64,000 bases of DNA from positions 3,076 through 67,075 of IMG/VR virus record IMGVR_UViG_3300030060_006228; one strand, written 5' to 3'. A program made the translations under genes and the position numbers. Shown piece after piece: positions 2,967 to 9,042 of this stretch. Under the pieces are notes generated by a model. That model was not told the DNA's origin and did no database searches. It was given only the letters and a program-made list of their open reading frames with translations. How positions within the stretch are numbered: position 1 is the first letter of the stretch; each line of letters starts with the position of its first letter. The DNA is from a virus.

Positions 2967-3920
2967 ATGTCAAAATGTCCCTTTTCAGTTTTTCATAGTA
3001 AAAAAAATCGATTAGAGGAAGAGAAACCCTCAATCATAGAAGACTATACCGACAATCCATATTTGCGGGTTCGTAGGGTACATCCCACACAAGGTTCTCG
3101 TATTGTAAAGGCAAACTCTAAACTCAAAGGCCCAGATGGACAATGTGAAACTCTAGAGTGGCCTAGAAAAGATGCACTGAGTAGATGCGGACCTTATGTA
3201 CATGCGAACCAAATGGGTTGGTGGTTGTTCCCCGCTGTGGATATTGATATGACATACCACGGCGATGGTGCATGGGATGTTCATGAATACACAAAGTTCG
3301 ACGCGGATGCGGAACAGAAACTATATGATGATCTTCCAAAGTATGAATACAAAACGGAAGATGGTAAGACTGAAGTTTTCAGATCCCAACCAAGAGCCCA
3401 TGTTAATGCTGGTTTAGCAGATAAAAATATTATTCAGATCTGGACTGGTTGTATGTTTAGAACTCCTCCGGGATGGTGTCTTCTTATTAGAAGTCCTGTC
3501 AATGCATGTGAAAGTTATAATAGACCATATCACATTCAAGAGGGAGTTATTGAATCTGACTGGATGGACTATGACATCTGGATGAATGTGGTGGTAAACA
3601 GAACTCATGAAAAAATTTCTCTTCGGCAGGATATGTGGCCACCCCTTGCACAAATTATTCCCGTCAGGAGAGAAGCATACGAAGCAAATTGGGATGTCGA
3701 TGATCGAGTAATCACGGCAGATGATCCTGAGTGGGCTTCGTGGCAAGATTATAATTTTAAGAAGTGGGAACGTCAAAATGAAAAGGACAGTAAGACCTAT
3801 TTCAAAGAGCGTTCAGTACAAAAGCCTAACAAAGATGTCTCTAAGGTTCTGAAGATTCGAGATAAGTATCGAGAACAGCGAGACAATCACCAAACAAAGA
3901 AGAATAAGAATGATAGTTGA
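2967..3920 (+). CDS. DUF6065-like protein (paralog 1)
   Basis: CGPYVHANQMGWW, FRTPPGWCLLIRSPVN, EGVIESDW, PLAQIIPV. Confidence 0.7.
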   Translation: MSKCPFSVFHSKKNRLEEEKPSIIEDYTDNPYLRVRRVHPTQGSRIVKANSKLKGPDGQCETLEWPRKDALSRCGPYVHANQMGWWLFPAVDIDMTYHGDGAWDVHEYTKFDADAEQKLYDDLPKYEYKTEDGKTEVFRSQPRAHVNAGLADKNIIQIWTGCMFRTPPGWCLLIRSPVNACESYNRPYHIQEGVIESDWMDYDIWMNVVVNRTHEKISLRQDMWPPLAQIIPVRREAYEANWDVDDRVITADDPEWASWQDYNFKKWERQNEKDSKTYFKERSVQKPNKDVSKVLKIRDKYREQRDNHQTKKNKNDS

Positions 3921-6924: not shown

Positions 6925-7279
6925 TAAACAACTACAAAGAAACTCTCTCGGAGTCATTGGACTCGGTGCTTTCTGTGGTTCCATCATGCAAGCAGCCGCA
7001 GGTGAATTTGAGAATGCAATTGTTCTTGGTATGATTGCGCCTAGTATGTTTGCCATTCGTTCAGATATTCCTTCTCTTGAAATGAGTCGTGACATTGATG
7101 ATCGAGAAAACTCCATCTATCAAAGTATGGAATACAACGAGCGTGAGTGCGACACTCGCATTACCGATATGGATCGTGAAATTCACAGCCGTATCGATGA
7201 CGTTGAACGCCAGATGGAAAACGAAGTTCGAGAAATTTATTCAGAAATGTCCAACAACAATGTTGACATCACTGATTGA
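6917..7279 (+). CDS. Membrane protein with coiled-coil C-terminus
   Basis: Hydrophobic N-terminus and heptad-like acidic tail. Confidence 0.6.
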   Translation: MIDKQLQRNSLGVIGLGAFCGSIMQAAAGEFENAIVLGMIAPSMFAIRSDIPSLEMSRDIDDRENSIYQSMEYNERECDTRITDMDREIHSRIDDVERQMENEVREIYSEMSNNNVDITD

Positions 7280-7290
7280 TAGAGTATAAT
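7263..7290 (+). promoter_or_regulatory. Consensus sigma70 promoter
   Basis: TTGACA-N16-TATAAT. Confidence 0.8.
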
Positions 7291-7379
7291 TAATGCATAG
7301 TCGAGACGGGACAGTTAACGGTGATGTCCAGAGTTCTCAAGTCTAATTTGTTCACCGTAAGTTTACAGGAGTTTGCATA

Positions 7380-7652
7380 ATGAACTGCAAGACCATGTCC
7401 AAGAAGCGTAAGGTAATCAACTACCTTTACAACGGTAACGGCCTCACCGCTAACGAAGCCAAGAGTCGGTTTGGTGTTTCAAACCTTCGCGCCACTATCT
7501 CTGACATCCGTGATATGGTGGAAGCCCACGGTAACTGGGAGATCACCAGCGAGACTACCAAGACTGGTAAGACTCGCTACTACATGGAGGACACCCATCC
7601 GGGTACTCGTTCCTTCGGTTTCGACAGCGAAGGCCGTCGTTTCGCTCTCTGA
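7380..7652 (+). CDS. Winged-HTH DNA-binding protein
   Basis: LTANEAKSRFGVSNLRATISDIR...GKTRYYM; AGGAG RBS; own promoter and terminator. Confidence 0.7.
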   Translation: MNCKTMSKKRKVINYLYNGNGLTANEAKSRFGVSNLRATISDIRDMVEAHGNWEITSETTKTGKTRYYMEDTHPGTRSFGFDSEGRRFAL

Positions 7653-7666
7653 GTGAAAACAACTCC

Positions 7667-7701
7667 GGGTACTTTGGGGGTTTCCCCCATCGTACTCTTT
7701 T
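7667..7701 (+). terminator. Rho-independent terminator
   Basis: GGGTAC-TGGGGG/CCCCA-GTACTC hairpin followed by TTTT. Confidence 0.6.
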
Positions 7702-7720
7702 ACAACTGAATAACATATAT

Positions 7721-7921
7721 GCGGAAGTCATGAGCCGCGTATAGGACGGTGACTGAATATTGTTCGTCATGTGATAAAAGGTACTGTCTTCCCTGTAGTG
7801 GGGTGCTGATGCTCAAATGAGTGAAGTAGCGAGTAACTAACGCAAGGTAGGTCTGAGTAGGGTACTAATCGCCTAGCGTGAACCCGAAAAGTGGTGGTAA
7901 ATGGTAATCCACCCCGTCCAC
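7721..7921 (+). ncRNA. Candidate ~200-nt multi-stem ncRNA of unknown family
   Basis: GGACGG (7744) / CCGTCC (7914) closing helix encloses several hairpins; GC-richer than flanks; no + strand CDS. Confidence 0.55.
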
Positions 7922-7933
7922 GAATTACTGTCT

Positions 7934-7969
7934 GAGGGGAGGCGAAGCGAAAGCATCTCGCCTCCCTTC
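7934..7969 (+). other. Strong hairpin (terminator or processing site)
   Basis: GAGGGGAGGCGA...TCGCCTCCCTTC with an inner GC-GAAA-GC. Confidence 0.6.
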
Positions 7970-7984
7970 GAGACATATATAAAA

Positions 7985-8285
7985 CTGGTATTGATGAAGA
8001 CGGAATAAAATCTAAACAAGACGGGAGTTCGATTCTCCCCGCCTCCACCAGAGTTACCCTTGCATGTAGTATAGAAGCAAGACGTAATAAAACCAAAGAG
8101 AAGATTTGTGAGGGTAACTCTGATGGGGGCGAACGGAATAGATTGGTAGAAAGTAGTGAAGTTGGAGATACCCGAGAAGGCAACCTACTCGCAAATCGCG
8201 GTTGTAAAAATTAACTGGCGCAAACAATTTTGCCCTTGCTGCCTGAGCAGCGGAGATTCACCCACTTGTCAACAGAACGGGTGAT
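7985..8285 (+). ncRNA. ssrA: Circularly permuted two-piece tmRNA
   Basis: Acceptor piece ends GGGAG-TTCGATT-CTCCC-CGCCTCC-A-CCA at 8050; coding piece starts GGGGGCG at 8125 (G3:U70); pk1 at ~8172-8206; tag GANNFALAA* at 8217-8246; outer ends approximate. Confidence 0.9.
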
Positions 8286-8287
8286 GG

Positions 8288-8319
8288 AAAACGGGGACGA
8301 AAGTTCTCGTTTTTCTTTA
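8288..8319 (+). terminator. Terminator after the tmRNA
   Basis: AAACGGGGAC-GAAA-GTTCTCGTTT followed by a T run. Confidence 0.75.
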
Positions 8320-8360
8320 TACATACTATGTTATTTCATTACTTTTTATGGAGGTGTATA

Positions 8361-8579
8361 ATGGATTTTAATTCTGAGTTATGGGAAAACCTAAAACCAT
8401 CCGACAGCGTGATTCGAGGGTTGAAGGCAAGACTTAAATATTGCAGTCAAGACGTAATTTGCACTCCGGCAAATAAATGTGCCTGTGATAAAATGCTTGA
8501 AGATCTGGAAGACTCCGAAGAGTGGATCAACTCTCTTCCGGGTGAAGCAAGTACTTGCGAAACTTCAGATAGAGATTGA
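8361..8579 (+). CDS. Small hypothetical protein with a Cys cluster
   Basis: GGAGG RBS before ATG 8361. Confidence 0.6.
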   Translation: MDFNSELWENLKPSDSVIRGLKARLKYCSQDVICTPANKCACDKMLEDLEDSEEWINSLPGEASTCETSDRD

Positions 8580-8604
8580 CAACCTTAAATAACAGAGGTA
8601 TAAT
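8576..8604 (+). promoter_or_regulatory. Consensus sigma70 promoter
   Basis: TTGACA-N17-TATAAT. Confidence 0.85.
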
Positions 8605-8606
8605 AC

Positions 8607-8777
8607 ATGGGTGATAAGCATGGTGCTGGTAAAGGTGATCGTTACCGACCAGTAGATCAAGATCGTTATAGAGAAAACTACGAAAAGATTTTTGGAAAGG
8701 CAAACAACAATGGAAAAGATTCAAATCGTAAGACTAACAACGGGCGAAGAACTTCTCGCAAAGGCGACAGTAAATGA
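8607..8777 (+). CDS. Small basic phage protein (GKGDRYRPV...YRENYEKIFG), not in the ORF track
   Basis: GAGG RBS; resembles small GKG..RP..Y..N...IF phage ORFs. Confidence 0.65.
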   Translation: MGDKHGAGKGDRYRPVDQDRYRENYEKIFGKANNNGKDSNRKTNNGRRTSRKGDSK

Positions 8778-9042
8778 AGACAAGACTACAATCACCATCA
8801 AGGATGTAGCAATTCTTATCCCTGCTGGTGAAGGTAAACTTGCATTCGCTCCTTGGTGTCCATACAGTGATGTAGCAGATGGTGTGGAGATTGGTATGGA
8901 ACATATCATGTTCACTGCTTCTCCTCAGTCTGAACTTGAACAGCAGTATATCTCCGCTATTAGTGGACTCGCTGTTCCACAGGAAAAGAAGATTGCAACA
9001 CCCGGAGATTTCATGGCGGGTGATCTGAAACTTACTAAATGA
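8710..9042 (+). CDS. Sm-like domain protein of T4-like phages
   Basis: IVRLTTGEELLAK...FAPWCPYS...LEQQY. Confidence 0.7.
   Translation: MEKIQIVRLTTGEELLAKATVNEDKTTITIKDVAILIPAGEGKLAFAPWCPYSDVADGVEIGMEHIMFTASPQSELEQQYISAISGLAVPQEKKIATPGDFMAGDLKLTK

Follow-up and report, generated by a model that had tools for sequence, protein, structure and literature searches.

Sequence evidence for a divergent manA-family RNA beside a permuted tmRNA in a phage RNA-gene island

The viral record IMGVR_UViG_3300030060_006228 of IMG/VR (67,075 bases, with a completeness estimate of about 30%) is analysed here over the 64,000 nucleotides (nt) from its position 3,076 to its end, a stretch hereafter called the window, whose own numbering is used throughout. 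T4-type baseplate and tail-fibre genes are encoded in the window, and the baseplate genes match Synechococcus myoviruses best, with an amino-acid identity of about 30%. The + strand includes a stretch rich in RNA genes, with tRNAs starting at 2872, 6647, 9935, 11393 and 11481 and a transfer-messenger RNA (tmRNA) starting at 7987; five tRNAs and one tmRNA on the same strand within 9 kb amount to a location feature like that of the phage RNAs GOLLD and ROOL. Immediately upstream of the tmRNA lies the subject of this report, a structured RNA at 7718-7923 (+) which, on its alignment to the family model, is a divergent member of the manA family (RF01745), a variant and not a new class, and which we rather favour as a stand-alone RNA over a messenger RNA (mRNA) leader.

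No open reading frame (ORF) of at least 25 codons occurs on the + strand in 7721-7900, and the sole long frame over the manA region is a minus-strand, TTG-started ORF (7767-8183) that extends through the tmRNA too. An earlier reading of 7721-7969 made without database searches (the sequence-only reading) had proposed a discrete, non-coding, multi-helix phage RNA of unknown class within an RNA-gene cluster. Most of this proposal is supported, and the helices drawn in it largely agree with the actual fold; the unknown class is not upheld, because the Rfam check matched a known family, manA, from end to end, and near-identical relatives score above the curated cut-off of that family.

Family and fold of the RNA

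The window RNA aligns to the complete manA model (positions 1-192 of 192, not truncated) with 54.1 bits and with E values of 5.8e-13 in a narrow scan and 4.9e-11 over the whole 64-kb window. Because this score is 1.1 bits lower than the gathering score of RF01745 (55.2 bits), the default gathering-threshold Rfam scan returned no entry within 7721-7969, and manA appeared only under an E-value threshold; this branch of the family escapes Rfam at its default thresholds. The 67-kb record holds one manA copy by Rfam scan. Two signature blocks are present, the GUGACUGAAUA junction at 7749-7759 and GGUA-N4-GUAAUCC in the loop of P9 at 7896-7910 (as DNA, GTGACTGAATA and GGTA-N4-GTAATCC), and the columns of both are invariant or nearly so in an alignment of 46 manA sequences. 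Both blocks are correctly spaced, so that a search pattern built for the family matches the window copy.

Helices are numbered here from 5' to 3' on the Rfam structure, a scheme of our own. The core elements follow one another in the order of manA: the P1 hairpin, an outer helix closing two multistem junctions, P4/P5/P7 and P9. According to the Rfam alignment, non-standard pairs are absent from P1 (0/6), the outer helix (0/5), outer P3 (0/2), P4 (0/6), P5 (0/3) and P9 (0/5); the peripheral P8, P6 and inner P3 deviate from the consensus, and the window has hairpins of its own there. Characterised manA variants, in the accessible part of a preprint (10.64898/2026.07.01.735769), retain the core fold and vary in their peripheral helices, and we therefore take the peripheral mismatches as the mark of a variant and not as grounds for exclusion. 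P8 of the window copy is alignable in sequence with subtype-B manA.

Every helix listed by the sequence-only reading is present in the sequence (coordinates in Table 1). Its GCGG/CCGC hairpin extends to 7-9 bp (7716/7718-7741/7743), and its long-range helix GGACGG/CCGTCC is the manA outer helix. The stems CTGTCTT/AAGGTAG, CCC/GGG and GCG/CGC correspond to P4, P5 and P7, GTGG/CCAC lies inside the longer GGTGG/CCACC of P9, and TGAC/GTCA and GCTC/GAGT were found as well.

The manA RNA described by Weinberg et al. (2010; PMC2864571), as far as its accessible text goes, shares with the window RNA the 5' hairpin, the outer helix, the GUGACUGAAUA junction, a P4 enclosing three hairpins and a P9 with GGUA-N4-GUAAUCC, and the family likewise occurs in T4-like marine phages. 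The variant aspects of the window copy are its peripheral helices, its loops, an extra 3' hairpin and its genomic context: relative to the consensus, P8 is remodelled, inner P3 and P6 differ, L5/L7 reads UAGU/ACUA and not UGGU/ACCA, a 10-nt palindromic P1 loop replaces GACG, a GAAA-capped hairpin is added at the 3' side, and the gene lies beside a tmRNA and not upstream of an ORF as manA leaders do.

Folding of the 249 nt of 7721-7969 gives -79.7 kcal/mol (z -1.90), with 11 of 200 shuffles equal or better. Thermodynamics alone is weak support, and the significance comes from the covariance-model match. RNAalifold, run on a 44-sequence MAFFT alignment of manA, did not recover the family structure, and the Rfam alignment was used instead.

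Table 1. Features of the window around the manA-class RNA, in order of position
Feature	Coordinates	Strand	Basis and remarks
Sigma70-type promoter TTGACA-16-TATAAT, 12/12	7263..7290	+	Closest promoter-like site upstream, same strand
90-aa ORF	7380..7652	+	Weak winged helix-turn-helix match (phrog_4973); relatives served to find related phages
Hairpin then TTTT, possible leaky terminator of the ORF	7667..7701	+	z -3.34; unflagged by terminator scan
Short leader AACTGAATAA...	7704..7717	+	Conserved with the two close relatives and with the leader of element R (see below)
manA-class RNA, RF01745 positions 1-192	7718..7923	+	Rfam alignment, 54.1 bits
P1 hairpin, 10-nt loop with palindrome TCATGA	7718..7741	+	-10.7 kcal/mol, z -2.59, 5/200 shuffles as good; GCGG 7721-7724 / CCGC 7735-7738
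Outer helix, 5' strand GGACGG	7744..7749	+	Partner 7914-7919; two compensatory double changes in the close relatives
Conserved junction block GGTGACTGAATA, manA signature	7748..7759	+	Rfam and family alignments
Stem TGAC/GTCA	7750-7753 / 7766-7769		Sequence reading
Second multistem domain	7784..7850	+	P4, CTGTCTT 7784-7790 / AAGGTAG 7844-7850, enclosing P5, P6 and P7
P5	7791..7802	+	CCC 7791-7793 / GGG 7800-7802; L5 7794-7799
P6	7806..7829	+	GCTC 7811-7814 / GAGT 7819-7822
P7	7829..7843	+	GCG 7829-7831 / CGC 7841-7843; L7 7832-7840
Remodelled P8 region, off consensus pairing	7851..7892	+	Resembles subtype-B manA and element R (GTCTGAGTAGGGTAC...ACCCGAAAAG)
P9 hairpin, loop block GGTA-N4-GTAATCC	7893..7913	+	GGTGG 7893-7897 / CCACC 7909-7913
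Outer helix, 3' strand CCGTCC	7914..7919	+	
Long GC-rich 3' hairpin, GAAA tetraloop, no U-tract after	7930..7974	+	Counterpart of different sequence in the close relatives
Permuted (two-piece) tmRNA	7987..8246	+	RF04321, 73.8 bits; tag frame 8220-8246
Hairpin with U-run after the tmRNA, likely end of the RNA transcription unit	8286..8318	+	z -5.16; unflagged by terminator scan

The surroundings of the RNA had also been described in part. The strong hairpin reported on its 3' side is real (-31.5 kcal/mol, z -6.70, 0/200 shuffles), and the adjacent tmRNA proved to be a permuted one. The upstream "terminator" survives as a hairpin at 7667-7697 followed by TTTT; as a terminator it received no flag in a simple terminator scan. 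ARAGORN did not report the tmRNA, whose tag frame, read from the sequence, encodes an 8-residue tag ending in LAA. The window manA lies outside the tmRNA gene, as the tmRNA match starts at 7987 and the same module occurs in two relatives with no downstream tmRNA. The next + strand ORF starts at 8361, 438 nt past the manA RNA, and the 3' hairpin, the tmRNA and the terminator-like hairpin intervene. A second perfect (12/12) sigma70-type promoter is located at 8576-8604, and the 7263 and 8576 sites (spacers of 16-17 nt) precede small ORFs; in several related contigs the -35 box is placed within the loop of a terminator hairpin.

Close relatives, other manA loci and element R

A pattern scan of metagenomes with L7 left free yielded seven loci, two of which, L121 and L122, are true relatives of the window RNA; the other five represent a single unrelated sequence family, and a viral scan for the L5 variant, again with L7 free, gave three loci that were all unrelated upon reading. 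Window-type sequences found in these two large collections number only three, and blastn of 7300-8400 against 50,697 phage records retrieved three records only, each over 38-44 nt of the tmRNA T-arm region. L121 and L122 score 55.3 bits against the manA cut-off of 55.2. A core of about 170 nt, which begins in the inner part of the outer helix and extends to the 3' strand of that helix, differs by one base between the window and these relatives, and P1, the outer helix and the 3' hairpin have diverged in sequence with their pairing kept. In the outer helix, all six pairs are kept in the three sequences and two of them have both bases replaced (one G-C by A-U, one A-U by G-C), a signal that 58 of 500 shuffles matched with three sequences only, and the double changes are suggestive of selection on structure. 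In P1, P4, P5 and P9, every pair is formed in all three sequences. The 3' hairpin of L122 (z -6.21) bears a GAAA tetraloop and no U-tract, as in the window. In both relatives the module has no tmRNA downstream, and the hairpin, an 11/12 promoter and ORFs come next; in L122 this promoter lies between manA and the next ORF. As a module, the window copy is conserved in these two related phage contigs, its closing helix having changed in a compensatory manner.

The 5' strand of the window's 3' hairpin contains GGAGGCG (7939-7945), exactly complementary to the 3' acceptor strand of the tmRNA (8040-8046), and an alternative RF00023 alignment at 7938-8050 (36.5 bits) reflects this complementarity. 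It is probably a coincidence, because the L122 counterpart has no such match. The idea that the hairpin is a relic of the 5' end of a one-piece tmRNA was rejected, the L122 counterpart having no likeness to tmRNA.

L121 and L122 bear an 83-nt tmRNA-like element, an acceptor plus T-arm scoring 46.9 bits, about 190 nt upstream of manA. Elements of 83-84 nt were located at L067 2591-2674, L069 632-715, L070 2253-2335, L071 3397-3480, L122 4117-4199 and L121 2095-2177; their matches, scoring 31.5-46.9 bits where the cut-off is 47, are confined to the acceptor-stem and T-arm ends of the tmRNA model, and a tag-coding region is lacking. These elements may be miniature RNAs of a tmRNA-like or tRNA-like kind.

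The family pattern made from the two signature blocks retrieved 63 other viral manA loci from IMG/VR, with 37 distinct cores. In 11 of the 63, a tRNA gene adjoins manA at 0-12 nt on the same strand. Three of the loci (L035, L037 and L058) have a strong manA of 122-125 bits, with the tRNA beginning at or beside the final manA base, and L029 shows the order promoter, tRNA, permuted tmRNA, tRNA, manA, tRNA. A shorter manA-like class, with 136 nt between the signature blocks, comprises one sequence found at L005, L006, L020, L039 and L046, together with L014 and L057. Its members stay beneath the manA gathering score and lie 3-5 nt from tRNAs, with tRNA-Gly and tRNA-Pro on either side in the L005 group and tRNA-Pro following in L014 and L057, which have an alpha-type tmRNA. 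Like the window copy, these tRNA-embedded manA RNAs (L029, L035, L037, L058 and the shorter L005 group and L014/L057) are on the same strand as the tRNA and tmRNA genes of RNA-gene arrays, leave no room or target for cis regulation, and show subtype-B features in P8. Unlike it, they abut tRNAs, so that tRNA processing would define their ends, whereas the window copy is parted from its tmRNA by the long hairpin. That some phage manA copies lie near tRNAs is an earlier observation. No description of tmRNA-linked manA or of element R (see below) was found in the examined passages of the literature on manA RNA. A possible shared downstream synteny was dropped, as BLASTP gave no alignment between window ORF 8710-9042 and the DUF6561 ORF that follows manA in L024.

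Phages related to the window were found via ORF 7380-7652, which has relatives at 14 loci (62-81% identity); 12 were scanned, L074 and L078 being left out. No manA was detected at E <=0.01 in any of the 12, and blastn of these relatives to the window RNA region gave weak pieces only. Many of the relatives carry, downstream of the ORF homologue, a structured RNA of about 225 nt that we call element R (L068 3570-3888, with the RNA at 3620-3844; also L067, L069, L070, L072, L075, L078, L081, L086 and L098). Element R has its own 12/12 sigma70 promoter and an intrinsic terminator; covariation is seen in several of its helices, with 11 of 67 predicted pairs changed on both sides across nine sequences, and Rfam scanning up to E 10 gave no match. 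The copy in L075 comes immediately after a one-piece tmRNA (151 bits).

Element R and the window RNA have in common the leader ACAAyTGAATAA, the block GTCT-AGTAGGGTAC...CCCGAAA and a GGTAAT...CC hairpin, and nhmmer of element R against window 7846-7909 gives an E value of 0.0095. Both lie downstream of the same ORF family and consist of a 5' hairpin, an outer helix (7-bp in element R), multistem domains and a 3' hairpin. Unlike the window RNA, element R is devoid of the GUGACUGAAUA junction block and of L5/L7 complementarity, and it has its own promoter and a canonical terminator. Its homology to manA runs solely through the window copy, which may link canonical manA, especially subtype B, to element R, a connection that is inferred and weak.

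The first ~110 nt past the ORF homologue in L065-L075 hold a conserved hairpin pair ending in a T-run (CTTGATGAGG...CCTCATCAAG, then GTGCGG...CCCGCAC TTTCTTTT). The window lacks this pair and has another hairpin, at 7667-7697.

Loops and predicted self-assembly

Cryo-electron microscopy (cryo-EM) of manA RNAs has revealed self-assembly into pentamer-based octamers, decamers and a 60-subunit cage, with contacts through L5-L7' and L8-L9' (or L3-L8') kissing loops and a GNRA-receptor contact, according to the accessible part of the preprint (10.64898/2026.07.01.735769). On the numbering used here, consensus L5 (GGUGGUG) is complementary to L7 (ACCA), and consensus L8 (ACUGUA) is complementary to L9 (UACAGU) in the majority subtype, which fits the interface names given in that source. 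The L5/L7 pair reads UGGU/ACCA in 43 of 46 aligned manA rows and UAGU/ACUA in the window, apparently a compensatory change from G-C to A-U that keeps the two loops complementary. P1 loops carry GACG in 25 of 36 distinct P1 regions and a 6-nt palindrome in 10 of 36. The palindromes differ (UCAUGA in the window, AUUAAU/UAAUUA in L122), and such palindromic loops would suit a self-kissing contact.

Gene type, rival explanations and significance

The best explanation of the locus, and one that we consider rather probable, is a divergent manA RNA that stands alone, probably self-assembles and is not an mRNA leader. It would be made as a discrete, stable RNA. Transcription from the 7263 promoter would read through the 7667-7701 hairpin, include the permuted tmRNA and run to 8286-8318, and the manA RNA and the tmRNA would then be parted at or close to the long 3' hairpin 7930-7974, in our reading not a terminator but an element for protection or processing of the 3' end. 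By analogy with the manA RNAs imaged by cryo-EM in the accessible text of the preprint, the product would be a self-assembling structural RNA, whose copies would be linked into a closed oligomer by L5 UAGU with L7 ACUA and by the palindromic loop of P1; no ligand-sensing mRNA-leader role would fall to it. An independent module in a tRNA/tmRNA island, with a conserved core, a co-varying closing helix and loops, and no mRNA target, favours a trans-acting structural RNA over a leader. Like GOLLD and ROOL, manA is repeatedly placed amid tRNA and tmRNA genes, which points by analogy to the translation apparatus.

Several observations weigh against this explanation. The score of the window RNA remains 1.1 bits beneath the curated Rfam cut-off, and the Rfam alignment flags 8 of 11 pairs in P8, 5 of 6 in P6, 3 of 6 in inner P3 and 2 of 5 in P7, helix numbers that we infer from the Rfam structure. 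L5 UAGU is also complementary to an ACUA in the L8 region, so that its pairing with L7 is not a unique reading, and the compensatory change in L5/L7 is a single evolutionary event. No Watson-Crick stretch of at least four pairs joins the L8 region to L9 in the window copy, and one of the two published pentamer interfaces is thus not evident. The promoter scan found no promoter directly upstream of the RNA. A metatranscriptome check comprised 20 runs, including 6 RNA runs, with a share of 0.05-0.12 of the sampled words present in each, and the contigs of four RNA runs were compared: these cover ORF 7316-7672, the 34 nt of 7789-7823 and, in the T-arm region, 8016-8051. The rest of the manA region has no contig, and none spans 7694-7767 or 7842-7989, which as contig data is neutral on transcription. 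Lastly, in 20 of the 37 distinct cores the RNA comes after a sigma70-type promoter, and an ORF of 289-299 aa begins 39-89 nt downstream of it (loci L003, L004, L007-L010, L016-L018, L021-L023, L028, L030, L036, L043, L048, L051, L054 and L060), and the manA family might have a cis role.

Contigs from two metatranscriptome runs of different studies (X15 and X19) match the 34-nt P5-P6 piece 7789-7823 with 3-4 differences and unlike flanks; they may derive from a further RNA relative or match by chance.

The one 289-299 aa ORF tested encodes the single-stranded DNA-binding protein gp32 (PF08804), and other manA copies precede a transaldolase or DUF6561 gene; this promoter-manA-ORF layout corresponds to manA as a classical 5' leader, as pictured by Weinberg et al. 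(2010; PMC2864571), and manA might contribute to gp32 autoregulation in cyanophages. Applied to the window, the picture would make the RNA a cis-acting, riboswitch-like leader that senses a ligand or protein and controls read-through to the tmRNA and the genes past it, the hairpin at 7930-7974 serving as expression platform. We judge this unlikely, although Rfam types the family as cis-regulatory, manA was proposed as a riboswitch candidate in that same 2010 study, most sampled copies lie between a sigma70 promoter and one of the above ORFs 24-89 nt downstream, and a strong hairpin is found immediately 3' of the window copy. This hairpin lacks a U-tract and was unflagged as a terminator, and in L122 the next gene has a promoter of its own after the counterpart of the hairpin. 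Neither an ORF nor a ribosome-binding site is in reach, the first ORF start (8361) lying past the tmRNA, and the same module is present in L121 and L122 with no tmRNA to control. In the 11 loci where a tRNA starts 0-12 nt after manA, there is no room for an expression platform. The window copy is not placed as a 5' untranslated region; having neither expression platform nor target ORF, it is an unlikely riboswitch, and the riboswitch reading may still apply to canonical manA leaders.

Less credible than the leader is a decaying, functionless manA remnant stranded in the RNA-gene island, as the sub-threshold score, the loss of consensus P8, P6 and inner P3, and the finding of only three window-type sequences might suggest: the ~170-nt core has changed by a single base despite rearranged and diverged flanks, and P1, the outer helix and the 3' hairpin are altered in sequence and still paired. 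Less credible still is a 5' leader of a permuted pre-tmRNA, needed solely for the processing or folding of the two-piece tmRNA. The tmRNA match does begin 64 nt past the RNA on the same strand, with no terminator between, and the hairpin that follows the RNA is complementary to the tmRNA acceptor strand; in L121 and L122, however, core and hairpin precede a promoter and ORFs and not a tmRNA, the hairpin shows no complementarity, and other manA copies exist without any tmRNA. Just as improbable, and already largely refuted, is a new RNA class unrelated to manA whose Rfam match would arise by convergence or chance, since a score under the cut-off and a 3' third resembling the Rfam-less element R have to be set against the full-model alignment at E 4.9e-11 over the window, both signature blocks at the right spacing, two relatives above the cut-off and sequence alignable with subtype-B manA through P8.

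The preferred reading, a stand-alone and probably self-assembling manA RNA, invites comparison with GOLLD and ROOL, phage-encoded RNAs often near tRNA islands that form homo-oligomeric nanocages and for which the accessible part of PMC12286853 gives no known protein partner or function. They are 3-4 times longer than the window RNA and unrelated to it in sequence and fold, the likeness being one of behaviour and context only, and the Rfam scans gave no GOLLD or ROOL match in the window. As a tentative and still doubtful generalization, manA-type RNAs might constitute a superfamily of stand-alone, self-assembling phage RNAs, not riboswitches, with canonical, short tRNA-flanked, tmRNA-linked and element R branches, whose genes would move together with those for tRNA and tmRNA and whose target during infection would be the translation apparatus.

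The UAGU/ACUA loops, the palindromic P1 loops, the extra GNRA hairpin and element R provide natural variants for testing how loops control assembly. An orphan "riboswitch candidate" since 2010, manA gains from the window copy and its relatives genomic evidence on the type of gene that it is. If the broader view is true, the window copy would be the sequence bridge tying element R to manA, and the superfamily could serve, for instance, as a shell or scaffold made of RNA for particles of the ribosome, for tRNA or for tmRNA, a small-RNA counterpart of GOLLD and ROOL.

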